Shown here piece by piece: positions 4,215 through 47,855 of a stretch of DNA of 64,000 nt (its first letter is position 1; each line of letters starts with the position of its first letter). Source of the stretch: Escherichia coli (lineage in GTDB: Bacteria > Pseudomonadota > Gammaproteobacteria > Enterobacterales > Enterobacteriaceae). The notes beneath the pieces were generated by a model. It saw only the letters and a list, made by a program, of their open reading frames with translations, was not told the DNA's origin and did no database searches. The position numbers and the translations under genes are program-made. The DNA is taken from NCBI RefSeq assembly GCF_016903815.1, contig NZ_CP069973.1. One strand, written 5' to 3'.

Positions 4215-5105
4215 TCAGGCTGCCAGATCATCGTTTCCGATGGAAGCATAATAAGCTTTTTCTGCTTCTGCCGGAGGAGTATGGCCCAGCCTTCCCAGCA
4301 ATCGTCGATTGTTATACCAGTCCACCCACGTTAGTGTGGCCAGTTCCACTTCTGCACGGTTTTTCCAGCTCTTACGGTGTATTACCTCCGCTTTGTAAAG
4401 ACCATTGATGCTCTCAGCCATCGCGTTGTCATACGAGTCGCCTGTACTCCCTGTTGATGCCAGTAATCCGGCTTCTTTTAGTCGCTCCGTATAGGCCAGT
4501 GACACATACTGAGAGCCTTTATCGCTGTGATGGATGGTGCCAGACGGACGACGGGCCCACAACGCCTGCTCCAGCGCATCCAGCACGAATGTCGTTTCCA
4601 TAGACGATGAGACCCGCCACCCCACGATGTATCCGGCAAACACATCAATGATAAACGCCACATAGACGAAGCCCTGCCATGTGCTGACGTAAGTAAAATC
4701 AGCCACCCACAGCTGGTCAGGTCGTTCTGCCACGAACTGACGGTTTACGCGGTCGCCTGCGGCAACGGCTTTCCGGCTGATGGTCGTACGGACCTTTTTA
4801 CCCCGGAGAACACCGGCAAGTCCCATAACCGCCATGAGACGTGCCACTGTACATCTGGCCACCCTGATTCCTTCCCGTAACAACTGACGCCAGACTTTAC
4901 GCACACCGTACACCTGATGATTTTCATCGTATACGCGCTGTATCTCTCTCTTCAGCCAGTCGTCGTGCTGCGCACGGGCACTGCGTTTATCCGGATGATG
5001 TCGCTGTTGCTGACAATGGTAATACGTTGACGGGGCAATATGCAGTTCGCTGCATACCGGTCCGACCCCGTACTGCTCACGCAGCTTATCCAGCAGTGGC
5101 ATCAT
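4215..5105 (-). CDS. IS629-type transposase OrfB (DDE integrase core)
   Basis: 296-aa ORF with IS3-family DDE catalytic core (e.g. [16 protein letters not shown]). Confidence 0.9.
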
Positions 5106-5428
5106 TTTTTCCAGAGGCGGTCGAACTCCGCCTTCGCAAAATAAGCGGAAGCCTGGCGAAGGATATCGTTACTGCGGCGCAGTTCACGATTTTCACGTTC
5201 CAGCTCTTTCAGACGCTGACGTTCAGCGCTGGTGAGCCCACCATCACCGCCCCCGGTATCCCGCTCATGCTGGCGAACCCAGACACGCAGAGTCTCCGGC
5301 GTACAGCCAATCTTTGGAGCAATGGAACAAATTGCCGCCCACTGTGAGTCATATTCATCCTGACTTTCCAGAACCATACGAATCGCCCGCTGACGGACTT
5401 CGGGGGAAAAACGAGTATTTTTAGTCAT
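5102..5428 (-). CDS. IS629-type transposase OrfA (helix-turn-helix)
   Basis: 108-aa [26 protein letters not shown]...; IS3-family orfA, overlaps orfB for programmed frameshift. Confidence 0.9.
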
Positions 5429-5453: not shown

Positions 5454-8400
5454 TTAGTCTCCAGGATTTCCGGGGCGGTTCAGCTGTTCATTAAAACGTT
5501 GTCCAGGCTGATCATAAAGTGCGCGTAATGTCTCCGCGGATGGCCGCGGTTGCATTTGCTGCATGCAGGGTTTCTGGTGGTAATCAAAATACTGTGGCAG
5601 ATGCTGGATCTCTGCTTTGTTTTCAATTACCCGTTGAAGGGCTCTTTGACGCAACTCTCTTGATGATTTGTCACGGATCGATTCCAATTGTAGCTGGCTG
5701 CCGCTACTAATTCGCTTACGAGCAGCATCAAAATCAAAGCGAATAGCCAATAGACTCGGCGTAGTCTCACTTAGCTGCAATTCCCCTAATTGCACTGATT
5801 CACGCTTATCTTTAATATAAACAATGATCTTATCATCAAGTTCAAAGCTGAGGTCAGCACCGGATTCCGTAGTATATGGGTAGAGTAAGCAACCACTCGG
5901 TGATTCCTGAAAGTCAGTAGAGTCGATGTTGACTATATCTCGTAGGTCTACTTCTGTATCAGATAATGCCTGCCATAACTCAATTGGGCTTGACTCACTA
6001 CTATCGAAGTCATCTTCATCCATCTCTTGATTAGGATTAGCTCGCTCAATGATGGCATCAATTACTGGCTCGAGGTTAAACAGTAGTTCAATAAAAGTAT
6101 TACGCTGATTAAGTGAGCCACGTTGTAATGAAAGTTGAGTATTAATTTTAGCCTGGGAATATTTACCAGCCTTTATACTTTCTTCGATCGATAATCCTTT
6201 TTCATACACTATTCTATTAATAGTGCGATTATCAGGATCTAAGTCTATCAATAGCCGCTCTCCTAGGCCAGTGATGTAACAACGCAATTCATGCGCAAAG
6301 CGTGGGTTAGATGACCAGTTACATTGAAAATAATAGATCCCATCATTTTGTTCTAGAAGCTTCACTTCTTGCGGCCAATCATCTGTGCCCCAGCAAACAG
6401 GAATTACCTTATCCTGTGACTCAGACGCCACAACTTGATTAATCTCAGCTTGTTCCGGTGCTCGAATTGACTGCAGCAAAGGATCGAGCGCGATAGGTAT
6501 ACCGTCAACGGTTTGTTTTGCGCGTTCTAGCTCAGCCTGCACCAGTACTGGCATATCTTCACTAAATAGCTCCTCCACCATACGATATACTGCAAAGCAA
6601 TCTCGCCCAAAAGCATCAGTACTTTCGGGATTCTCTGGCTGGTAGCGATTATCTGCAGTTAATTCATCACTGAATTCAAGCAATCCAATCAGAGTAATTA
6701 CTGTCTGCTCCCCGACTTGTACCAGCAGTTTCTCTGGGCAAAGATCTCCATGAGGTAACTGCTTTTCATGAAAAGCATGAATGGTGTTGATCAACTTTTC
6801 CGCAATTGTAAAACGTTGGGATTGTACTAACACGTTCTCAGCAATAAACTGTGACCACGGTAGGCCATCCACATACTCGCTCACTACATACAAGCCGCCT
6901 TGTCCTAATAGTCCATAGGACTGCACCTTAGGAGTTGGCAGATTTATATGCGTAAGCTTATCGATCCGTTGCTTAAAAGCGTGGATACGGCGGTTAACAC
7001 CAGGTTGTTGAGGGGTCAAAATAACACCATCCCACAATTTTACCTGCAGAGCTTTCCCACCTTGTTCACAGTGATAACTGATGCTGCCAGTCGTAGCAAT
7101 AGCAGCAAGAGCAGAGTAAACCATAGACAACTGTTCAGGAAGTGGAGGAAACTCAATTAACACACCAACGCTGTTCATCCCTTCGCGAAAGAATTTGTTT
7201 TGCTTTAATTCTTGATAAATCTGGTTAGCTTCATCAAATTCTTGGCTATGTTCCTTAGTAGCTGCATTAAACTCATTGAGCATTATGTCCGCACGTGGAA
7301 AGCGTTTACTTGGCTCAAGGTTAAGAGCTTGCTCAAACCAGCTATTTAGAATACCGCTAAAAGGATCAGTTAATGGAGCTCTCCATTCAGGCATCTGTCC
7401 AGGAGTCAGTAATGATTCACCTGCAAAACAAATACGATAAGCAATTACAGCCAACATGAATACATCTAGGCGATAGGGCTCAACTGCTTCTTCAAAAGCA
7501 TCTTCGGGCAAAATATATGGAGCACTTTGCAATGTCGGACGCAATGACTCTAGGCTATTATGTCCCTCCAGTGAGGCTGCGCCAAAGCCAGTAACGACAA
7601 TGCTCTTCTGATCCCCTGCGTACCATAGATTGTGCGGGTCAATATCACAATGACTGATACCCAAGCTATGTAATTCCGAGAATGGAGCTAATAATGCACG
7701 AACGCGATCAATACGCTCAGATTTACTCCATCCGTCAGCTTCGCTATCTAGAATCTCATCTAATCGGCTAAAACTACGGCGTAACTCATACAGCTCACGG
7801 GCATCATCAGTTATATCCTCCTCGGATAGTTCCCTTACAGCACGCAACATATAATCCTGCATAGTTGCGCTGCCATGACGAACTAGGCGACCGACTCGAG
7901 TCTCACGCAGAGCTATCTCAGCCCACAATGTTTGCATTGCGTTTGCTACACCCAAGGCATCAAAGTTCCACTGCCGTAGCAGACCTCTGTGTTGACTATT
8001 GTCTTTGTGGGTAGCCCTGAATTCGTTGTAGACCATGTGAGGGTGACTAAAGAATGGCTTATCGTTCGCAAGATAACCGCTTTCTTTTAGTGGCAAAGGC
8101 CTGACTTTTGGTCCTTCAAAGAAGGACTTAATTATAGGTAATGCCTCATCAGAATTTGGTCGAGGCTTTCCCCCTTCAAAAAGATGAAAAAAGTTAGTGT
8201 GTTGCACCAGCTTTTCGTAATTTTTTGGGTTACCTATAGTCAAGAATTCATCACGGGTATGAACATAGCGCCTCTCACTTAATGGCAAGTTTTCAGGACC
8301 AGCTGTGCCACACAGCACTACATGAGCCTCAACATGCAAAAAGTAACCCAGCTTACGAGATAACTCTTCCTGCAACAAATCTTTTAGTCGCAGTGCATGC

Positions 8401-8678
8401 TCACGCTTGATCTGATAGGGACTTTTGCCTCGTGACTTACCATTTTGCAGCCACTTCCCCCCTTCAAATGTGATGTTACCATTCCACTCTTTAAGCTCGA
8501 CTAATAGCAGACGGTCAGCAGTAATAATTAGCATATCGATTTCCATCGACCCTTGGCTATCAGTAACAACTAAGCCAGCATAGCCAAACCAACTATCTGG
8601 TAACTGCTTAACCATCATATCAACTGTTTTGGTTTCGCTGCGGTGCAGGCCAGCACCACCTACTATCTGATACTTCAC
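5454..8678 (-). CDS. Large uncharacterized protein: N-terminal NERD-like nuclease-related domain followed by two protein-kinase-like domains and a ~370-aa C-terminal region; native 3' end replaced by IS629 sequence
   Basis: 1074-aa ORF; NERD-like motif [22 protein letters not shown]; kinase catalytic-loop-like motifs [11 protein letters not shown]...GFG and [11 protein letters not shown]; last 9 codons (LNRPGNPGD) are encoded by the IS629 inverted repeat. Confidence 0.7.
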
Positions 8679-10594: not shown

Positions 10595-11472
10595 ATGAAT
10601 ATCCGTATCTGGAGTGGTATACTCCCCTGTATGGATATCTCCGCTCTCAACACCACGAATGACATCGAAAAACTGCGTGCTATGGCACTTACCATGGTAC
10701 AAAAAGTCATGTCGGAGAATGCCGAAAAAGAGCGGGAATTACTGGAGAAAAGCCGGCGCATCCAGCTTCTGGAAGAAATGCTGAAACTGGTTCGTCAACA
10801 GCGCTTCGGTAAAAAATGTGAAACGCTGGCTGGTATGCAACGCTCCCTGTTCGAAGAGGATGTTGATGTCGATATCGCCGCGCTTACCGCACATCTGGAT
10901 AAACTGCTCCCGCAATCCCCTGAAGAAGACGAAAAAGCGTCCCGTTCACGCCCGATACGCAAACCCTTACCGGCTCATCTTCCACGGGTGGAAAAAATTA
11001 TCCAGCCGGACACTGACCATTGCCCTGAATGTGACGAGCCGCTGCACTATATCCGTGATGCGGTGAGTGAAAAGCTGGAGTATATTCCCGTTCACTTCGT
11101 GGTGAACCGTTATGTCCGTCCGCAATACAGTTGTTCCTGTTGCCAGAAGGTGTTCAGCGGTGAAATGCCGGCACATATCCTCCCGAAAAGTGCCGTTGAG
11201 CCATCAGTCATCGCACAGGTGATCATCAATAAATACGGTGACCACCTGCCTCTGTATCGCCAGCAACAGGTCTTTGCCCGTTCAGTGTCGGGCTGCCCGT
11301 CAGTTCGATGGCTGACATGGTTGGCGCGGCGGGTGCCGCATTATCTCCCCTGGCGGCGTTACTCCATCGCGAGTTGATAAACCGTCCGGTGGTGCATGCA
11401 GATGAGACTACCCTGAAGATCCTGAACACTAAGAAAGGCGGTAAATCCTGCTCCGGTTATCTGTGGGCAACC
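10595..11472 (+). pseudogene. IS66-family transposase TnpC, frameshifted and truncated
   Basis: N-terminal leucine-zipper-like region and zinc-finger motif CPECDEPL...CSCC; continuation ADETTLKILNTKKGGKSCSGYLWA lies in another frame (11308 onward). Confidence 0.75.
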
Positions 11473-12274
11473 AGCCTTCCGCCTCGTCCGGATCCGCTGT
11501 TTCCAGTGTCATCAGGAGCCGGCTGCATGCTTCCCCTGCCGTTTTACCCAGCGTGGCCCGCTGCGAAAGACGGATGCGGTTTCCGGCACCCAGCCCACTG
11601 CGGTTATCGATATGGACCTTAACCGGATCGGGTTCGGTGATAAGTGCGCGGGTATCCGGTGCCAGCAGACTCACCAGAGCCCGGATGCCTTCAGCATTGC
11701 GGGTGGGTAATCGCATGGCACCCAGTAAGGCCAGGAAACGGGAAACCGGCGTTGCCACCTGTTCAGCGGTGCCGGGTATACCGAGTCCGACCAGTCCCAG
11801 CAGACACTGCGATGTGGCATCGCGCCCCCCCTCCTCGAAAGTGGCCGGATACGCATATTTTCGCCAGATCCGGTAGTACTGGGTGGTGATGCGGTGGCTG
11901 AAAATATCCAGAAATGAGGTGAGCGCCTCATGTCCTTCACGGCGCTGCGCAATATCATCCAGCCAGGACGTCGGCAGAGGTGAGTCCACCCCATACATTC
12001 CGAGAAATGTCGTGCGGATCGTTGGGGGTAATGTCGGACGGTCTTCGTCGATCTCCACCGCTTTCAGGGTGCTGACCGGGAATCCCATCCCGGGCCAGGG
12101 CCTGAATCGCACCGGGTCATCGCCCGGATGGCTGGTCGTGCCCAGTTTTGGCCCGTCCGGATTTTCCAGCTCCAGCAGCTGGCAGAAACGATAAAAACTG
12201 GCCCGCCAGATATCGTTGTTAAGGGCCAGGGCCTGCGTCAGCCCGGTACGTGCTGGCTGTGATTCTCTTTTCAT
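11429..12274 (-). CDS. tssG: Type VI secretion baseplate protein TssG, C-terminally truncated at the IS66 junction
   Basis: 281-aa ORF with TssG-like segments (FYRFCQLLELENPDGPKLGT, PVRFRPWPGMGFP, FLDIFSHRITTQYYRIWRKY); 3' end overlaps IS66-derived sequence. Confidence 0.7.
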   Translation of the reverse strand: MKRESQPARTGLTQALALNNDIWRASFYRFCQLLELENPDGPKLGTTSHPGDDPVRFRPWPGMGFPVSTLKAVEIDEDRPTLPPTIRTTFLGMYGVDSPLPTSWLDDIAQRREGHEALTSFLDIFSHRITTQYYRIWRKYAYPATFEEGGRDATSQCLLGLVGLGIPGTAEQVATPVSRFLALLGAMRLPTRNAEGIRALVSLLAPDTRALITEPDPVKVHIDNRSGLGAGNRIRLSQRATLGKTAGEACSRLLMTLETADPDEAEGWLPTDNRSRIYRLS

Positions 12275-13929
12275 CTCAGTCGTTTCCCTGTGGGTTGCAG
12301 TACCAGTGTGAGCTGGTTGAAAAGGTGAACATCAGCATAGAGCGCAAAGAAACGGTGCAGCATCTCCCCGAAGAGATTCACATCGCCCTCGCCGGCAAAA
12401 TTATCCATATTCAGCGTGACCTCAATGTCCACGCCACGGAGCATAAAGCCCTTTTCAAAACGGCGGATCAGGGTGTGCTTCACAGCAACGATGGCTTCAA
12501 GCCGGCGGCGGTTCATTTCATCGTCGGTCCAGTCATAGAGCGCCAGCGTCCCCCGCAGCACCTCCGGATTGTCCATCATGCTGAGAAAGTTTGATCCGAG
12601 GTGACTCATCACCCGCCAGTGAAACCGGTCATTTGCCGGGGGATACAGTGGCATCGTCGGTGCGGTCAGGTTCAGGACTCTGACGGGGACTTTGCCGGTT
12701 TTGACCACCCTGTCCAGGAGCGTACTTTCCAGCGCCCTGCGCGGAAGCTGCCCGTTGGTCGCGGTGATTCGCATCGAGAGGGACTCCGGTTTATCGGACA
12801 ACTGCTCCAGCTCGAACGAACGCCCCCCGAGAACTAACCATGTGTCATACAGGCCGGAGGGTCCCCGTTTCACACGGGTGTGGTAATAACGTTCAGGAGC
12901 ATCGTGGCGCATCATACCGCCCCGGTGCCGGAAGCTGGTGAACGGGACATAAGGGTGTCTGCCGTTCTTCACCGAGCCGTGAATGTTATCGACGCTGTAA
13001 ATTTCGGTGTGACCATCCTGAAGACGCAGCGGCCTGAGCAGGTACTCGTTATCCAGCGGGTTAAGGATCAGCGGGTCGGCTTCCAGGGTAAAGAGATTGA
13101 TAACCGGCGCACAGTGCAGGCGGAAGTTTTCTGTCTCAAAAGGCAAACCGGATGACCAGGCTTCACTGAGCACAATGTCGATTTCAAACCAGGTACTGGC
13201 CGCAGTGAGCCCAATGGTGTCGAGGCCGCGCAGTTCAACAAACATAAACTTCGGACGGAAGCTGAAATACTCCAGCAGCAACTGGTAACCACTGAAGGCT
13301 GTATCAGCTTTCTTCCACAGGCAGTCATTGTCGTCAAAGCCCATGGGTCTGCACCAGCCGTCAAACTGACGACGTCCGGTATATGTCCCGGCATGACGCG
13401 CATACATGGCATGTACACGCCGGGTCATTGCCAGATGTAGCGCAGCACTTACCGGCGCCTCTGCGTTAAGAAAAATGGCGACTTTGTCGATCCCGGCTTT
13501 ACTCCAGTCCACTTTTTCAGGGCATTCGAAGCGCAGACGGATAGCAGAGCGGCCATCGGATTCAGTATGGAGACGGGCATCTGCAAGGTGCAGCGGTTGT
13601 AGCAACACATCGCGGGTCGCCCGGTACTGGCAGGCGGTTTTATGCGGCCCGACAGGACGGGACAGAACGGAAAAGCCTTCAGCCAGTATTTCGGCCTGAC
13701 GCAGACTACGCCAGTCAGGCGAGAACTCAACGATGGCCAGCGACGGGATAGTCCGCATATAGTGCGGCCACAGCAGACTCACCAGACCTTCGGTGAGCTC
13801 CGGCAGGTCATCATCCAGCTTTTCACGCAAACGTCCCATCAGGAAGGCAAAGCCTTCAAACAGACGTTCCACACTGGGATCGCAGGCACCAGGCTTATCC
13901 AGATTCAGCATTGCTGACGTAATCCACAT
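12271..13929 (-). CDS. tssF: Type VI secretion baseplate protein TssF (N-terminal region possibly disrupted)
   Basis: 552-aa ORF with TssF-like N-terminal motif DPSVERLFEGFAFLMGRLREKL; a further TssF-like piece lies in another frame at 13895-14116. Confidence 0.7.
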   Translation of the reverse strand: MWITSAMLNLDKPGACDPSVERLFEGFAFLMGRLREKLDDDLPELTEGLVSLLWPHYMRTIPSLAIVEFSPDWRSLRQAEILAEGFSVLSRPVGPHKTACQYRATRDVLLQPLHLADARLHTESDGRSAIRLRFECPEKVDWSKAGIDKVAIFLNAEAPVSAALHLAMTRRVHAMYARHAGTYTGRRQFDGWCRPMGFDDNDCLWKKADTAFSGYQLLLEYFSFRPKFMFVELRGLDTIGLTAASTWFEIDIVLSEAWSSGLPFETENFRLHCAPVINLFTLEADPLILNPLDNEYLLRPLRLQDGHTEIYSVDNIHGSVKNGRHPYVPFTSFRHRGGMMRHDAPERYYHTRVKRGPSGLYDTWLVLGGRSFELEQLSDKPESLSMRITATNGQLPRRALESTLLDRVVKTGKVPVRVLNLTAPTMPLYPPANDRFHWRVMSHLGSNFLSMMDNPEVLRGTLALYDWTDDEMNRRRLEAIVAVKHTLIRRFEKGFMLRGVDIEVTLNMDNFAGEGDVNLFGEMLHRFFALYADVHLFNQLTLVLQPTGKRLR

Positions 13930-16068: not shown

Positions 16069-16635
16069 TCAGAAGTGAGGCTTACGAGGACGCCCTGCAG
16101 CAGGTCGTTCAGGAACTTCACTGCAACCGTATGCGCACAGTCCGTCTTTTTGCTCTTCTTTCGCCAGATAATGCAGGACACCGCGAATATTATCGATGCT
16201 CCCGGGATCGTTATGACGCACGGGAATGTTGATGTTGTATGTATAATGCGGCTGATATGTACAGCGGTGTGCCGAACCGCTGTTATGCGTAATAGACTGC
16301 CAGCATTCCGTAATCCGCTCCGCAAAGGGATATATTTTTTTAACCCTCTGACGATCGAGCCAGAAAACCGCATGCGCATGAAAACCATGATCAGCCGTCC
16401 ATTCAATCACCCAGAAGAAACCAACGATATTTTCAAATTGTTCCACCTGCTCCAGCAGCATACGCAACTGCAATTCAAGCCAGCGATGATCAGGTTGTAA
16501 GAAATCAGGCGTATCTTTCCTGTAGAAGAAATCCATGCGTAAGGCCCGCAGGCGGGAATAGCGTGCGACCAACTGATTGATGTGATTGTCAAGTAAAGCG
16601 GTAAAAAACCAGTTTGGTGTGTAAGATTTAGGCAT
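16069..16635 (-). CDS. YagK/YfjJ-family (inovirus Gp2-like) protein, paralog
   Basis: 188-aa ORF sharing motifs with the 15239-15841 and 19308-20039 ORFs (e.g. HAHAVFWLDRQ vs HYHVILLLNKD). Confidence 0.55.
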   Translation of the reverse strand: MPKSYTPNWFFTALLDNHINQLVARYSRLRALRMDFFYRKDTPDFLQPDHRWLELQLRMLLEQVEQFENIVGFFWVIEWTADHGFHAHAVFWLDRQRVKKIYPFAERITECWQSITHNSGSAHRCTYQPHYTYNINIPVRHNDPGSIDNIRGVLHYLAKEEQKDGLCAYGCSEVPERPAAGRPRKPHF

Positions 16636-18128
16636 GCTGATGACTCCTGAAAGTTAATGACGTTTTAAGTGCTGTAAACGAATTAATGCTTTCGCTCATA
16701 ATCAGATCTAAAACGGTAATAACTTACAGACGGTATTTATCAGGCATGCTGTAACAGAATGGATACGTCGGTTATTAACGACACACAGCGTTGTGCTGAA
16801 GGGTATGAGTTATCTGATGGCATTGTCTATAGAGATGAGATAAACGAGGTGCGAAGAAAATACAGATTCAATACAACACAGTGAAATACAGAAAAATACG
16901 AACTGTAATCCCGCTGCCAGGCGGTTAGGAAACATATTACAACTATAAGCTCATGGTTTGTAAATTTGCTCTCAGTGAGTCTGAAAAAACGTTTATAAGG
17001 TCACCACAATAAACTCACACGCGCTTATTCAATCTGTTCTCCAGGATATGAACGTTAACGACACACGATAGCATAAGACAACATACAATGGATGAATAAT
17101 TTTCACCCAGTACCTTAAACAATACAACCGGCAACAAATATAATCAGAAATTCACTCTGTTAATTCTGTTGTTTATCCTGCGCTGTTAAACATGACGGAA
17201 CCATGGATACCTTATCAAAGAGTAAGCATTCAGTTAATCAGTAATGACAGAGAAATTGATGTTCACCAGAATAGTTAAAACACTTCAGATAAACAATCAT
17301 TGTTAAGCAAATACGGTTCATAATGGATAAATTAGAATCAATTACTGTTTTACTGAAGATGAGAATAGATGAATATCAACAATAGCGTAGTAGAGAATAA
17401 CTTACCTGAACATCATATGAGTTACAGTAGTTATGATTGAGGGATGGAGTGAATACGATAACAAGAGTAATACTAATGGAATGTGTAAAGATTGAGAGTG
17501 AGTGAAGACAGGAAGTAAATAACAATAGAGATTGTATGAAAAAGGGAGTGAATAAAGAATATATAAAGAATAAATATAATTATAGTAATAAACCTAAATT
17601 AAAATCATCCTTGTTTGATGAGTAAAAATAATTCTAGAAAATGAATCTGTCTGAAAACTCTTTCTCAGAGATTAACCGATCAGATGCTCAACGGACTCAA
17701 TAAATTGGCTGAGTCAGGTTACCTCATCCACACTCTATTTGTTTCTAGAAGGATCTACCATTTTGTTCATCTACCGGAACACATCAATTTAGTAACTCGA
17801 TAATATCGGTTATGTAGATATTTATCGTTGCTACCAATGCCTAGATTATTATTCTCCAAGTATTTTCTTGACTTACAGGCTAATTTTGAAACAAATGTCA
17901 TGCTATTTTAGGAAAAGAACCTATGCAAAAGTCTGCTATGAGCGAGGAGCAGATATTCATCTGGTATACAAAGACAATATCGCTTAAGTCATCAGTGCTG
18001 CCACTTTAACCACTAGCTCTGCTCTTTTTGGACTTTTGAGCTAAAAATTAAATCTGACAGTGTGATAAGGTGCAAGTTTCTGAAAATACGCCAGTTGTTT
18101 TACACTCAAAAGCCCCCATTACTATCTG

Positions 18129-18884
18129 ATGTTAATGGCGCAGCAGTTATCTTTCAGATTATTAAGGGGAAACAAGAGTATGGCAAGATGTACAGCTCCT
18201 GTACGTGGACATAGCTCAGCAGCAGCTGCTGCTGCCTGTCCCGCATGTCGTAATCGCAGTGGTTATCGCCGCAGTAGCTACAGTTATGATAGTTACCCTT
18301 CTTACTCATCAGGCTCTAGCGGTGGCGGAAGTTATGGAGGCAGTAGCGGTGGTTCCAGCAGCAGCGCGAAGCCACGTTGGTCAAAATCAGGGTCTTCCGT
18401 TTCTTACACAACAGCCCAAGTACAATCACTCACACCAATTCGACAAGCGGTAGAGAAACTTGCCATTGAGCAACCTGATCTGCGTGATGTCTTTCTTTGC
18501 CATGCTTGGGATGACCGACAAGGTATTGCCAAAGAGTTACACGATTTGCTCGAAGCGGCAGGTGTCAAAGTATGGTTCAGCGAAAAGGATCTTGCCCTTG
18601 GTGTTCCGATGATGCGTGCCATTGATAAAGGATTAGCAAACTCTCGAATCGGCTTGGTTTTAGTGACACCTGCATTGTTAAACCGTCTTCCTAAAGAAGG
18701 CGTTGCTGATAAAGAACTTTCCGCCTTACTGGCAGGCAACCAACTCGTTCCCATCGTGCATAACACGACGTATGAAGCTCTCCGTAATGTCAGTCCTTTG
18801 CTTGCATCCCGAAGCGGCCTCGACACGGGAGAAGATACATTGGCAGTTGTTGCAACAAAAATTGCAGAGCTGATCACTGTTTAG
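18129..18884 (+). CDS. TIR-domain protein with Ser/Gly/Tyr-rich low-complexity N-terminal region
   Basis: C-terminal ~140 aa DVFLCHAWDDRQGIAKELHDLLEAAGVKVWFSEKDLALGVPMMRAIDKGLANSRIGLVLVTPALL fits the TIR pattern; start codon uncertain (18129, 18135 or 18180). Confidence 0.75.
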   Translation: MLMAQQLSFRLLRGNKSMARCTAPVRGHSSAAAAAACPACRNRSGYRRSSYSYDSYPSYSSGSSGGGSYGGSSGGSSSSAKPRWSKSGSSVSYTTAQVQSLTPIRQAVEKLAIEQPDLRDVFLCHAWDDRQGIAKELHDLLEAAGVKVWFSEKDLALGVPMMRAIDKGLANSRIGLVLVTPALLNRLPKEGVADKELSALLAGNQLVPIVHNTTYEALRNVSPLLASRSGLDTGEDTLAVVATKIAELITV

Positions 18885-19307: not shown

Positions 19308-20039
19308 TCACCTGCCATCCAGTAAACGCCCCGGCCCACGACTGCAACCATAATTACGTTGACCAGAACCGTCATGCTGCTTCGTCTCATACTTCACGAG
19401 ATAACAGGCTCTCTCCATGGCTTTCTGCATCGCTTCCACATCACCACGCTTGACCCAGAGCACAGCGGATCCACCAGATTTTTTGTCAGAAGCTTTCCGG
19501 GTATCAGAACATCCACCCGACAAAGGCGTATCATCGGAAGAAGGGCGAGCATCAGATGATGCCGGTTTACGGAAAGGCGTCCGCCTGGAAAAATGAACCA
19601 GTCCATTACCCTGCCAGGGTTCAAGATGCAGAGCGCTACACCATGCCAGCTTGATCAGCGTCGCCAGCGAAGAAGGAACGGTGAAATCCCCTAGCGAGCA
19701 CCAGGTATCTTTGTTGAGCAGTAATATCACGTGATAATGTTTCCTGCCTTTTTCCTTGCCAAACTCCCGACACCAGAAATAACGCAGAGTGGTTGCACGC
19801 ACACGCTTGTTGGCACGTCGTTTATGTCGCTGGTAAGCCTGAATTTTTGCTTTCAGGGATTCGAAAAAACGAGAAATCACCGCTGAATCCGAATCGGGAT
19901 CCATGATGGTGACAGGCATATACTCAGGGAAACGTAAATCCATCCGGATTAACGAGACGACACGGTGTTGCGCCAGGGCACTGTTGAGAATACTTTCAAA
20001 ACGGGATAACCAGTAAGCATTGTGTATTGGTTGATTCAT
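19308..20039 (-). CDS. YagK/YfjJ-family (inovirus Gp2-like) protein, paralog
   Basis: 243-aa ORF MNQPIHNAYWLSRFESILNSALAQHRVVSLIRMDLRFPEY... parallel to the two other paralogs. Confidence 0.6.
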   Translation of the reverse strand: MNQPIHNAYWLSRFESILNSALAQHRVVSLIRMDLRFPEYMPVTIMDPDSDSAVISRFFESLKAKIQAYQRHKRRANKRVRATTLRYFWCREFGKEKGRKHYHVILLLNKDTWCSLGDFTVPSSLATLIKLAWCSALHLEPWQGNGLVHFSRRTPFRKPASSDARPSSDDTPLSGGCSDTRKASDKKSGGSAVLWVKRGDVEAMQKAMERACYLVKYETKQHDGSGQRNYGCSRGPGRLLDGR

Positions 20040-21682
20040 GATGAGAGATCTCCGTTGATTTGGATTGACTTCACATCATTAATCACCGCGGTAAAACTTT
20101 ACGGCATCCCGCCATTGAGCAACGCCAATGGCTCCTGATTAAAACAGAATGAATCCCCCACGAAGAAAAAATAAACCTACACGCAGAGTAAAACACACAA
20201 CAACGGCATAAATGGTTTTTAAAAACTACAAAGCCTGAAGGGAAACGGATCCACAGAACGTGCAAACAAAACACCAAAAACGCAATCAGAACGCTTTCTG
20301 CTGCTGTGAATCAACAACAATACCAAAACCTACAGCTTAACCACAAAACTCAATCACAGAGCCGAATAGCGTGTTTAAAACCTGTTTACAGATAACCCTG
20401 CCACAAGAACAAAGTTCACCAATATCAGAATCGATTTTCTCATCCTGAAAATGTTACGTTTCACTACACAGCATAAAAACGATTAACTATTGATAACGTA
20501 AACCTCATCTGAATCAAAACACCAGAACCAATCATCACGCTTTTCCTGAAAAGAGCCTTGCGCTGAGAAAAAACACCAGGGTCAGTTAATCATCTCATCA
20601 ATCTCATCGTTACAAAAACATCCATAAAACCATTTAACAAAATCATCGTAAGCACACAGTAAATCACGCCAGGTTATCTCAGCCAAATTTTCGTTTTACA
20701 TAAAGACACTTGTCTCAGGTTAACGACTAAAAACACAAAAACTCAGAAAAGGTTAAACGTAACTTCAGAAAAATAGAATATCATATTGATTGCTTAAACA
20801 GGAAAGATTGTTTTGTAGTAGCATTAAGCTGATTTTAGTTAACGTAAAAACAGGACTGACAGGTTTACTAAACTGGATGTGTATCAGACAAAGCAATGTG
20901 TATAACAATACTTAATGAAAACACTTGTAGAATTGTTTATGAAAATACGTGTATGTCTGGTAAAACACTTAGTAGAAAATACGTGTATAACACTTACTGA
21001 AATGCTTAGTAAAAATACTTAGTAAAATATGTGTAGAATTATCTATTTAAAAAGATATGTATATAACACTTAATAAAAACATGTGTATATAGTATCATAC
21101 CGACATTCTCAACATCTTCAGACTTCCATACATACTGGGTGTTGATTTCTCACTTTTACAGCCAGCATGGAGTTTTCTGTCCTAAAAACAGAGCAGATTT
21201 ACTCTGGAATTATTTTTCTACCCCCGTATTTCAGGCCCCAGAAAAGACAATCCGAAGCAAACCGTTTGTCAGCCTCCATATCATCTTTTACCCCCGGAAA
21301 GTGATCGCGTTTACAACCAGAATGACAGCCATACTGATTATGTCGTCTCCCGGCCCCCTTCACATATAACATGCATGTCTGTCATTGCTTACTGCTCCAC
21401 ATGACCGGATTTCACATACAGGATGCACATTCAGTGTTTTTATCGCTACTATAACAGACAGATTACTGTCGTCTTTACTCTTCAGATTGTTAATCTGACC
21501 ACAAGAACAGCCGAACGGCAAAACGCCCTCCACAAGGGGCACATGAACCATAGTTGATAGCATGTTTTTCCTAATCAAGGAATAGTTCAGGAATATTTTA
21601 TTGCATTAATAACTGGCGAATAATCGTTCTGTGAACACAAAATGCTTTTATTTGTAAATTTTATTGCATTGCACTCGTTTTA

Positions 21683-23611: not shown

Positions 23612-24496
23612 ATGTCATTCAGCCATTCTTCCCTCTCTGCACAAGTGAAATCATATCTGACGTTTCTTCCTGAAGAAATTCGCCAGAAAATCCTTGAACA
23701 TCTCCACGGTGTTATTCATTACGAGCCCGTGATTGGCATTATGGGTAAATCCGGCACAGGCAAAAGCAGCCTGTGTAATGCCATTTTTCAGTCCCGTATC
23801 TGCGCCACGCATCCCCTGAACGGCTGCACCCGCCAGGCTCATCGTCTTACCCTGCAGCTCGGTGAACGCAGAATGACGCTGGTCGATCTGCCCGGCATTG
23901 GTGAAACACCGCAGCATGATCAGGAATACCGGACACTTTATCGTCAGCTGCTACCGGAACTGGATCTGATTATCTGGATCCTACGGGCTGATGAACGTGC
24001 GTATGCTGCCGATATTGCCATGCATCAGTTTTTACTGAATGAAGGTGCAGATCCCTCGCGTTTTCTGTTTGTTCTCAGCCATGCCGATCGCGTGTTTCCT
24101 GCTGAAGAATGGAACGACACAGAAAAATGCCCGTCCCGTCAGCAGGCGCTCTCACTGGCGACGGTGACAGCCCGGGTGGCAACCCTGTTCCCTTCATCAT
24201 TTCCGGTACTCTCCGTTGCTGCACCTGTCGGCTGGAACCTTCCGGCGTTTGTGTCGCTGATGATCCACGCACTGCCACCACAGGCAACCAGCGCGGTGTA
24301 TTCACATATCCGGGGAGAAAACCGCTCTGAACAGGCCCAGAAACACGCACAACAGACTTTTGGTGACGCCATCGGGAAAAGCTTTGACGCTGCCGTTGTC
24401 CGGTTCAGTTTTCCGGCCTGGATGTTACAGCTTCTCCGTAAAGCCCGGGACCGCATTATCCACCTGCTGGTCACACTGTGGGATCGTCTGTTCTGA
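23612..24496 (+). CDS. YeeP/YkfA-family GTPase (cryptic-prophage type)
   Basis: 294-aa ORF with P-loop GIMGKSGTGKSS and G-domain motif DLPG. Confidence 0.8.
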   Translation: MSFSHSSLSAQVKSYLTFLPEEIRQKILEHLHGVIHYEPVIGIMGKSGTGKSSLCNAIFQSRICATHPLNGCTRQAHRLTLQLGERRMTLVDLPGIGETPQHDQEYRTLYRQLLPELDLIIWILRADERAYAADIAMHQFLLNEGADPSRFLFVLSHADRVFPAEEWNDTEKCPSRQQALSLATVTARVATLFPSSFPVLSVAAPVGWNLPAFVSLMIHALPPQATSAVYSHIRGENRSEQAQKHAQQTFGDAIGKSFDAAVVRFSFPAWMLQLLRKARDRIIHLLVTLWDRLF

Positions 24497-46823: not shown

Positions 46824-46835
46824 TACGCTACCGCC
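46824..46835 (-). promoter_or_regulatory. ops (operon polarity suppressor) element GGCGGTAGCGTA in kpsM leader (RfaH-dependent antitermination)
   Basis: Minus-strand GGCGGTAGCGTA is the reverse complement of plus-strand tacgctaccgcc, just upstream of the kpsM start. Confidence 0.7.
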
Positions 46836-47855
46836 CCTGGCTTAACAGCTACCAATACACTGGAGGTAATACTTGACTTGTTTGTAACTGGATAAAATTC
46901 ATTCGGACGGCTTGACCTTTTAATAGCCAAAAACAATTTCAGCAGAAATTATTTCCGCAGGGATAAATAGATCTATTTCCGTCTCGTTTCTTCTAATCCA
47001 TTCTTCAGGCATGAATGTATTCGGTCTTCTGGTAATTTCAGAAAACTGGCCGTTTTAGAATGCAGAGTTAATTTCTCAGGAAATTATTTTTTGTGATTAC
47101 TGTTAACTACTTGATTATAATATCCCCTATGGATTTTATGCGTAACAATACCTACAATCTGTTTCAAACCAGAACGCACGCGATTGATTACCAATAAATT
47201 GTTCACCGAGAAACTATTTCCCTATTTAAAATTCACTCGTGTACTTCTTATTTATATCTACAGCCCCCTCTTTACAGCCATATTTGTGATTCATATCACA
47301 TTTAAATGGTGTTATTTAAGTCGCATCAATAATCCCGAAGGTAATTATTTTCGTCGATTAAAATATACATCTTGATTATTTTGTGTGTTTATTTTAACCA
47401 GTGTTACAACCAACACCATCCCTCAGTAGATATACCTGAGCAGACATTTCTTAAAATCAACGAATAGTTTCACTGGAAATTATTATGCTTATTTGAAATT
47501 CCCTTTCTGATTATCTCCAGGAATTTTACTAATTTCCAAGCTACACAAAATACAGATCACACAAGAATTATCCTATATGTTTTGGCCTATCAATTGTTAC
47601 TCAATGATTTATTGCAACTATTAATAATCATAATGTGTCAAAACACTTAAGCAACTTTACAGTCTGAGAAAGGTGTCGATTAACGAAGGCTACATGGTGA
47701 AAAACAGGTTCCTTCAGTGTTACCGAATATTCCGTGGTGGTCTGGAGGGAGATAATTCTTGCTACATCGAAACTCAGCCCGGTAAGCGGGTTTGACAGTT
47801 CCGCACTCACCATTGGGCTAAGGGTTATCAGGTGGGGTTAAGGAAATGGCAATAC

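Follow-up and report, generated by a model that had tools for sequence, protein, structure and literature searches.

Bacterial TIR proteins encoded without a partner gene sit between two literatures, one of which treats them as mimics that block Toll-like-receptor signalling, while surveys of bacterial defence set partnerless TIR proteins aside; a recent systematic survey of Thoeris systems left stand-alone TIR proteins out by design. The same proteins are labelled "virulence" in one literature and "defence" in the other. One of them is TcpYI of Yersinia pseudotuberculosis, which was reportedly first described by Nörenberg et al. in 2013. PMC4810146 cites reports that its gene lies in a phe-tRNA island and that the protein aids survival in murine macrophages and in the mouse spleen. 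AbTir of Acinetobacter and TcpC of uropathogenic Escherichia coli CFT073 are demonstrated NADases, that is, enzymes cleaving nicotinamide adenine dinucleotide (NAD+), and rely on a glutamate in helix αC (PMC11374754), and for plants and animals it is established that TIR domains are activated through condensation or assembly (PMC10972746, PMC8923663). Here we describe a TcpYI ortholog encoded at positions 18180-18884 (+ strand) of a 64,000-nucleotide stretch of the E. coli contig NZ_CP069973.1 (assembly GCF_016903815.1), hereafter the window. This gene moves without a conserved partner among bacteria of several phyla, and we tentatively favour, as the leading though far from secure explanation, that its product is a self-contained, assembly-gated, NAD-cleaving conflict module acting in the carrier bacterium.

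An uninterrupted open reading frame (ORF) runs from 18129 to 18884 on the + strand, and a preliminary description of this DNA had taken 18129 as the start, giving 251 amino acids. That start lies 51 bases too far upstream. The Met encoded at 18180 is the first residue in every homolog aligned; the RefSeq protein WP_001389195.1 (234 amino acids, E. coli strain 222), which is identical to the product described here, begins at the ATG equivalent to 18180; and the 234-position PADLOC model PDLC00424 ("ThsB1|ThsB"), which matches over its full length (E = 3.6e-128), aligns its positions 1-233 to residues 18-250 of the 251-residue frame. We therefore conclude that the real product comprises 234 amino acids plus the stop codon, without the first 17 codons of the longer frame. 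A Shine-Dalgarno-like AAGGGG, read from the sequence, lies at 18164-18169 (+ strand), 10 nt before the ATG at 18180. Residue numbers below refer to the 234-residue protein; adding 17 converts them to the 251-residue numbering. Compared with other members of its family the gene is complete, and hence is not the remnant of a larger disrupted gene, a possibility that the preliminary description had raised.

The protein annotated as "putative lipoprotein" in Y. pseudotuberculosis IP 31758 (ABS46609.1, UniProt A0A0U1QVR5, P0058 in our alignments) is 81% identical to the E. coli protein with 100% coverage. Residues 1-92 of P0058 match all the ProtParam values published for the N-terminal region N-TcpYI (PMC7646307), namely 10 Ala, 8 Arg, 5 Asn and 0 Asp, a mass of 9.46 kDa, an isoelectric point of 10.15, extinction coefficients of 14565/14440, an instability index of 79.08, an aliphatic index of 31.96 and a grand average of hydropathicity of -0.695. 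Since these values are reproduced exactly, P0058 is TcpYI. Judged by its alignments, the E. coli protein is an ortholog of TcpYI and a member of the TcpYI family. Both share the same four-part order, described below, and a location in a phe-tRNA island; they differ in host species and in the sequence and length of a Ser/Gly/Tyr-rich tract, and the E. coli protein is uncharacterised. YpTdp of Yersinia pestis and TcpAh of Aeromonas were also considered as the published relatives and rejected in favour of TcpYI, as the lengths and N-terminal regions published for them disagree with this family.

This assignment sharpens a choice that the preliminary description had left between a TcpC-like virulence factor and an NAD-consuming effector, the nearest published relative being TcpYI and not TcpC. 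Like the E. coli protein studied here, TcpC is a TIR protein carried on a tRNA-associated island of extraintestinal E. coli. However, TcpC belongs to the serU island and is found in phylogroup B2 only (PMC4810146), whereas the gene in the window lies in a pheV island; its 170-residue N-terminal region (PMC7646307) is, by its published description, unrelated to the N-terminus found here; and it keeps the residues S176, D203, W240 and E244 (PMC11374754).

The four parts of the protein were defined from alignments of 20 and then 111 relatives, an AlphaFold2 (AF2) model with a mean predicted local distance difference test score (pLDDT) of 72, and composition statistics; an earlier AF2 model built from 20 near-identical sequences (pLDDT 53) was set aside. 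Residues 1-27 (18180-18260, + strand) carry a conserved Cys/His motif that forms a putative metal-binding knuckle, with the consensus M-x-x-C4-T-A-P-x-x-G-H11-x8-C20-P-x-C23. C4 and H11 are kept in 77 of 78 sequences and the CxxC pair in all 78. The motif is modelled with a pLDDT of 62-73, and its similarity to entries of the PDB is solely to generic CPxC zinc-knuckle half-sites (RING, C2H2, rubredoxin, Nop10), which makes metal binding plausible. Residues 28-62 (18261-18365, + strand) form a low-complexity tract rich in Ser, Gly, Tyr and Arg (S/G/Y/R) that is predicted to be disordered (pLDDT <50 over residues 28-64). Across 76 family members this tract measures 30-48 amino acids, consists of 39% S, 24% G, 14% Y and 9% R, and contains 3-8 aromatic residues. 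Its pairwise identity is 51% as against 42% after shuffling, and by this comparison selection on the tract is for composition rather than for sequence.

Residues 63-99 (18366-18476, + strand) comprise the conserved segment KPRWSKSGSSVSYTxAQVQSLTPIRQ, in which W67, S68, Y76, T77, S83, L84, P86 and R88 are invariant or near-invariant, and a helix leading into the TIR domain (residues 78-97 in the AF2 model, pLDDT 73-79). The TIR domain itself occupies residues 100-234 (18477-18881, + strand). The preliminary description had regarded the whole of the N-terminal 90 or so residues as low complexity; the tract that it quoted is present, but low complexity is confined to residues 28-62, the near-invariant Cys/His motif in front of it had been overlooked, and residues 63-99 form a conserved helix-containing segment.

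The DNA that encodes the S/G/Y/R tract contains no tandem repeat. Phase variation by slippage in this DNA was considered and rejected on that ground, and because all of the 30 E. coli copies sampled are annotated as TIR coding sequences. About one third of the motif-carrying representatives of clusters at 50% identity (P0135-P0284) shift frame just past the tract; for the same two reasons, these are probably artefacts of assembly or sequencing and not phase variants.

The TIR domain assigned by the preliminary description to the C-terminus was amply borne out. Pfam TIR_2 (PF13676) matches residues 121-214 of the 251-residue frame with E = 5.5e-15 (Pfam TIR, E = 0.0035), which, like the full-length PADLOC match, is far beyond chance. 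The PDB entries 3h16, 4lzp, 4lqc, 4c7m, 7uxr, 7uwg and 8g83 match at E = 3e-15 to 4e-13, and the nearest solved proteins by sequence are PdTIR (also PdTLP) of Paracoccus, BtpA/TcpB of Brucella, BtTir and AbTir. The same set tops the fold search, with target-normalised template modelling scores of 0.78-0.86 and root-mean-square deviations of 2.0-2.5 Å; Foldseek matched 21 bacterial TIR chains with scores up to 0.86. In the AF2 model the domain has the flavodoxin-like TIR fold (pLDDT 70-92), and hhalign aligned it to the AbTir-type family with 99.5% probability. By sequence and fold, the domain belongs to the BtpA/PdTIR/AbTir clade of bacterial Tcp TIR proteins, several of which are NADases. With the members of this clade it shares the βA motif D-x-F-x-x-H-A, the αC' motif G-x-x-x-x-E-L as aligned by hhalign, and the organization as a stand-alone protein with a non-TIR N-terminal region. 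On the other hand, identity is only 26-29%, and a coiled coil or DUF1883 takes the place of the Cys/His knuckle and disordered tract.

NADase activity requires residues S140, R151, D167 and V193 (AbTir numbering) in AbTir and TcpC alike (PMC11374754). The hhalign register pairs G174-V-A-D-K-E179-L with G203-W-T-N-Y-E208-L of AbTir, with a four-residue insertion at L170-E173, and the AF2 helices 164-173 and 177-185 are compatible with it. Based on this alignment and on the fit of the helices, E179 (codon GAA, 18714-18716, + strand; E196 in the 251-residue numbering), which is invariant in 78 of 78 sequences, is probably the catalytic glutamate, in a register that depends on the alignment method. 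The earlier idea that V175 replaces this glutamate, drawn from gapless alignments, was revised after the hhalign register was obtained. Elsewhere in the domain, R151 corresponds to K118 in 76 of 78 sequences, V193 is kept as V160 and Y238 is V204; compared with AbTir there are a four-residue insertion in αC and a four-residue deletion after αC'. NADase competence is best regarded as plausible, although the active site is remodelled.

To see which proteins carry the N-terminal module, we compared a profile built on residues 1-32 with 1.84 billion representative proteins and obtained 243 clusters. Intact motif matches were TIR proteins, belonging to two subfamilies, and the others were mostly fragments or frameshifted reads of the TIR gene. 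The second subfamily, mostly from Pseudomonas (P0223, P0291, P0293, P0298, P0305, P0311 and P0315), joins the Cys/His motif and an S/G-rich tract to an AbTir-type TIR domain, and lacks the segment equivalent to residues 63-99. Its TIR domain is 70-77% identical to that of DUF1883-TIR proteins (annotated "molecular chaperone Tir"), and the module occupies the exact position of DUF1883, as in a clean domain swap. As far as these matches indicate, the module is specific to TIR proteins and interchangeable with DUF1883, which suggests that it regulates the TIR domain itself. A wider use of the module on many types of effector was considered and discarded; a single protein joining the motif to TamB (P0253) is probably a chimera. 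We also observed that PDLC05062, the model of the single-gene defence candidate PDC-S66, matches AbTir-type TIR domains at ~235 bits.

A scan of one genome per species found relatives of the gene in 198 species, of which the best 80 loci, one per species, were analysed. The proteins of these 80 species are 65-100% identical to the E. coli protein and come from at least five phyla, the hosts including Bacteroidota (Chitinophaga), Acidobacteria, Myxococcota, Desulfobacterota and alpha-, beta- and gamma-proteobacteria. Many of them are free-living environmental bacteria, such as Nitrosospira, Methylobacter, Gallionella and Chitinophaga. The family is very large: of the more than 8000 clusters at 90% identity that received a score, each of the top 120 showed an identity of at least 76%. 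The G+C content at the third codon positions (GC3) lies between 0.24 and 0.74 and varies with that of the flanking host DNA (r = 0.65), while identity at the protein level stays at 65-87%. Since GC3 tracks the host, this conservation reflects purifying selection after long residence and not only recent transfer. Purifying selection thus acts strongly on the gene in hosts that span several phyla.

To search for a partner, all ORFs of at least 90 amino acids within ±10 kb were clustered across the 80 loci. There was no recurrent neighbour family: the TIR gene and ORFs overlapping it were the only families present in more than 7 loci. Two of these overlapping ORFs, an antisense ORF of 157 amino acids (window 18404-18877, - strand) that recurs in 57 of the 80 loci and an alternate sense-frame ORF that recurs in 40, were treated as shadow ORFs of a highly conserved gene. 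Neighbours of 312/334, 189-209 and 242 amino acids that the first contexts had suggested as a conserved partner proved mutually unrelated. The next-commonest family, in 6 loci, was the integron integrase IntI (TIGR02249, 473 bits), and six relatives (loci L039, L059, L071, L073, L087 and L088) are integron cassettes, in which the gene is a lone ORF between attC sites of the GCCTAAC...GTTAGGC type. For the copy in the window, no attC was seen by reading after the stop codon and no integron integrase is annotated nearby.

Flanking sequences are 34-36% identical across hosts compared with 75% within the ORF, and the sole flanking sequence that travels with the gene is a purine-rich ribosome-binding stretch. 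The contexts all differ (Pseudomonas, Vogesella, Yersinia, Gallionella, Aeromonas, Pectobacterium, a Klebsiella IncFIB plasmid) and contain integrases, insertion sequence (IS) elements, toxin-antitoxin pairs, type IV restriction genes, AAA_15/21 ATPases, NERD and DUF4238. The gene is also present on ~141 plasmids, mostly conjugative plasmids of Klebsiella, and in 109 of 5426 complete E. coli genomes (2%). Carriage by phages was rejected, as 50,697 phage records yielded only three distant TIR matches. Overall, integron cassettes, plasmids and islands carry the gene between bacteria as a bare ORF without a conserved partner. Because it travels alone across many phyla, the family probably has its site of action inside bacteria, and animal immunity is probably not its main target.

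These results also bear on whether the protein belongs to a known anti-phage system. The preliminary description had seen no partner gene, and none emerged from RefSeq annotation within ±12 kb, from the PADLOC scan of the neighbours or from the 80-species clustering. It had proposed Thoeris, CBASS and retron systems as possible homes for the protein, and it fitted none of the three. With ThsB, the TIR component of Thoeris, the E. coli protein shares a TIR domain and the full-length match to PDLC00424; it differs in having no adjacent gene for ThsA or another effector. RefSeq annotation within ±12 kb contains no ThsA (SIR2-SLOG), Macro-TM or other effector gene, and Thoeris membership fails because such a gene is adjacent neither in the window nor in the 80 other species. 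The NCBIfam model Thoeris_type3_ThcB4 scored 14.1 bits against a cut-off of 220, and ThsB structures were absent from the PDB sequence matches and from the top 50 fold matches at the thresholds used. PDLC00424 also matches TcpYI over its full length, at 411 bits, and hence simply models the TcpYI family. As for retrons, the retron-TIR model NF042941 scored 44 bits, in the TIR part only, against a cut-off of 600. PADLOC matches to retron-TIR, CBASS (cyclic-oligonucleotide-based antiphage signalling system) and SAVED-TIR models were confined to the TIR region, and no reverse transcriptase, CD-NTase or SAVED gene is annotated among the neighbours.

A variant of the Thoeris option would make the protein an orphan ThsB-type sensor that responds to phage infection with a nucleotide signal for an effector whose gene lies at another place in the genome. 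TIR proteins of the AbTir clade are said to make cyclic isomers of ADP-ribose (attributed to Manik et al. 2022), which we counted in its favour together with the full-length match to the ThsB-named model. Moreover, Thoeris TIR proteins expressed alone still yield their signal on infection (preprint 10.64898/2025.12.03.692087). However, the ThsB name of the model carries little information once the model is seen to describe the TcpYI family, the ThcB4 and structural comparisons point away from ThsB, no effector gene lies nearby, and a gene transferred by itself in an integron cassette has no assurance that every new host will supply the effector it needs. We consider this variant very unlikely.

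A second alternative is that the protein is a virulence factor like TcpYI or TcpC, which would enter host cells, dampen Toll-like-receptor/MyD88 signalling or deplete host NAD+, and so aid survival of extraintestinal E. coli in macrophages and tissues. In agreement with this, the protein shares identity and architecture with TcpYI, for which a role in macrophage and spleen survival has been reported (PMC4810146); the E. coli gene too lies in a pheV island beside kps capsule genes and occurs in urine, avian and canine isolates; and the TIR domain is closest to BtpA/TcpB. Yet the sequence contains no signal peptide or recognisable secretion signal, and the Yersinia protein, despite its "lipoprotein" name, has no lipobox. 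The gene occurs in only 2% of complete E. coli genomes, and proteins 65-87% identical have turned up both in integron cassettes and in free-living hosts from the environment that belong to several phyla. Binding to MyD88 does not demonstrate a virulence function either, since PdTLP of the non-pathogen Paracoccus also binds MyD88 in vitro (PMC4810146). An animal-directed primary role is unlikely in view of the carriage in integrons and of carriers from several phyla, environmental bacteria among them, that have no animal host to subvert, and the cross-phylum distribution is hard to square with a purely animal-host function. Taken together, we regard the virulence alternative as unlikely.

We therefore return to the conflict module that we tentatively favour. 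The TIR domain would cleave NAD+, with E179 as the probable catalytic residue, only once several copies associate, and the Cys/His knuckle and the S/G/Y/R tract would control this self-association. Within its carrier bacterium, the protein would serve as a one-gene module of abortive infection or of mobile-element conflict, with NAD+ depletion or a cyclic ADP-ribose-type product as the outcome, and the virulence effects of TcpYI in mice would be a secondary consequence or a later co-option. This proposal draws on the enzymology of the clade, the dependence of TIR domains on oligomerisation or condensation, the exclusive association of the module with TIR domains and the host range; in the sampled contexts, the gene also has toxin-antitoxin, restriction and further defence-type genes near it, one of them the truncated Mokosh MkoA 10 kb away in the window. 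Plant TIR-only proteins and SARM1/TIR-1, which become active through concentration-dependent self-assembly (PMC10972746, PMC8923663), offer a comparison of working principle only. The present protein carries a sticker-spacer-like S/G/Y/R tract beside its TIR domain, but close homology to those proteins does not extend past the TIR fold, and their condensation is driven by substrate or by other domains instead of a dedicated low-complexity tract. A more detailed version, in which a metal- or redox-sensitive knuckle restrains a FUS-like S/G/Y/R tract whose release would lead to condensation, TIR assembly and switching on of the remodelled active site (Cys107, Ser134), appears distinctly doubtful.

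Several points weigh against the favoured proposal. In strands that align unambiguously, S140 is replaced by C107 and D167 by S134, each in 78 of 78 sequences, and mutation of S140 or D167 abolishes NADase activity in both AbTir and TcpC (PMC11374754). The Trp of the WxxxE motif (AbTir W204) is V175. Gapless MAFFT and HMMER alignments place V175 or G174, which lie between the invariant E173 and E179, at the position of the catalytic glutamate. Thus, the catalytic glutamate whose presence was queried in the preliminary description is accounted for only in part: invariant E179 aligns with AbTir E208 in hhalign, but the gapless alignments disagree and two other NADase-critical positions have changed. 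In addition, the adjacency of defence genes comes from sampled contexts only, without statistics, and conservation this high across phyla is unusual for sensors of fast-evolving phages. From sequence we infer both metal binding by the knuckle and condensation. Finally, the only published experiments on the family, those on TcpYI cited in PMC4810146, report a virulence phenotype.

The changes in the active site are also the starting point of a third alternative, in which a catalytically altered TIR domain would act by TIR-TIR binding, for example as a mobile-element decoy that blocks TIR-based immune proteins of the host (Thoeris ThsB or TIR effectors) by joining their assemblies. Besides the two invariant replacements and the loss of the motif Trp, the position of AbTir R215 is deleted; carriage by integrons, plasmids and islands fits a mobile-element decoy, and the strong conservation fits the targeting of a conserved TIR interface. 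Nevertheless, invariant E179 aligns with the catalytic glutamate, the exchange of Ser for Cys is nearly isosteric, and E135, next to S134, is conserved in both the TcpYI-type and the AbTir-type families. Furthermore, a decoy role does not account for why a Cys/His knuckle and an S/G/Y tract would be required, and no anti-defence TIR decoy was found described in the literature searched. For these reasons, we find the decoy quite unlikely and retain the conflict module as our working proposal.

A close ortholog, TcpYI, is already named in the literature. In the literature searched, whose scope did not extend to the original description of TcpYI, we did not find the conserved Cys/His knuckle, the remodelled active site, the compositionally conserved S/G/Y/R tract as part of a TIR-specific module that swaps with DUF1883, or the carriage by integron cassettes and plasmids across phyla. 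PMC7646307 and PMC4810146, which both discuss TcpYI, make no mention of the Cys/His motif, of integron or plasmid carriage or of the cross-phylum distribution. Found in 198 species-representative genomes from E. coli to Acidobacteria, the TcpYI family is among the most widespread and best conserved groups of stand-alone TIR proteins. If the family is a self-contained NAD-based switch under the control of its Cys/His and S/G/Y module, TcpYI and similar "virulence" TIR proteins would need re-interpretation, a compact single-gene system would join the repertoire of bacterial immunity and conflict, and a simple bacterial model would become available for the activation of TIR enzymes by assembly or condensation, a process now studied in plants and neurons. 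Should the phase-separating module be real, this would be the first bacterial TIR protein activated by a built-in low-complexity module; the interchange with DUF1883 would point to a general logic of N-terminal "assembly controllers", and the classical Tcp virulence factors would have to be re-examined. If instead the protein is only a catalytically altered, host-directed TIR, it would be an ordinary accessory gene present in 2% of E. coli genomes.

Regarding the genomic setting, the colinear region of strain 222 shows an island bounded by an integrase and a tRNA-Phe gene next to yqgA and speC, that is, the pheV site, with kps capsule and gsp/sslE genes on the opposite side. By colinearity with strain 222, ~31400-64000 of the window contains the kps capsule cluster, the gsp type II secretion genes and sslE, and a JUMPstart RNA element lies at 46824-46862 (- strand). 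Based on the JUMPstart element and these colinear genes, we assign the TIR gene to the pheV island of an E. coli of the extraintestinal type that bears a capsule. The preliminary description had located the gene between YagK-family genes in AT-rich DNA, and this was confirmed: Pfam YagK_YfjJ_C recognises the genes on either side, at 16069-16635 and 19308-20039 (E = 3.5e-35 and 5.3e-06), and the DNA upstream of the TIR gene has a G+C content of 29-38%.

The 1.5 kb between the upstream YagK-family gene and the TIR gene (16636-18179) contained no ORF longer than 50 amino acids, no Rfam match and no excess of promoter or terminator matches. A decayed ThsA or other partner in this stretch was considered and rejected, given the absence of such an ORF or Rfam match and the lack of conservation of the stretch in other hosts. 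Together with ~20040-21680, this stretch brackets the YagK-family/TIR block; the two stretches (1.5-1.7 kb) have no ORF longer than 76 amino acids and a G+C content of 29-40%, and are possibly spacer DNA silenced by H-NS or decayed genes.

Ten neighbouring ORFs compared with PADLOC gave no match except MkoA and a weak LeoBC. The LeoBC match (1.6e-06, without an individually significant stretch) falls on a GTPase-family ORF at 23612-24496. The MkoA (Mokosh) match lies 10 kb from the TIR gene at 5454-8678 (- strand), where an ORF of 1074 amino acids aligns with positions 7-1030 of the 1607-position model PDLC03921 at 626 bits. The same gene encodes 1652 amino acids in strain 222. An IS3-family element (4215-5147), with an ALIL frameshift pseudoknot at 5031-5147, abuts the shortened ORF in the window, and MkoA therefore seems truncated by the insertion. 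Pseudogenes of the type VI secretion genes tssG and tssF lie at 11429-13929 (- strand), 4-6 kb from the TIR gene. In the Yersinia loci L006 and L008 (12277-16684), genes for TssG, TssF, SciN and IcmF are found ~3.5 kb from the TcpYI-type gene. The presence of type VI genes near both may be a trace of a common origin of the phe-tRNA islands of Escherichia and Yersinia.

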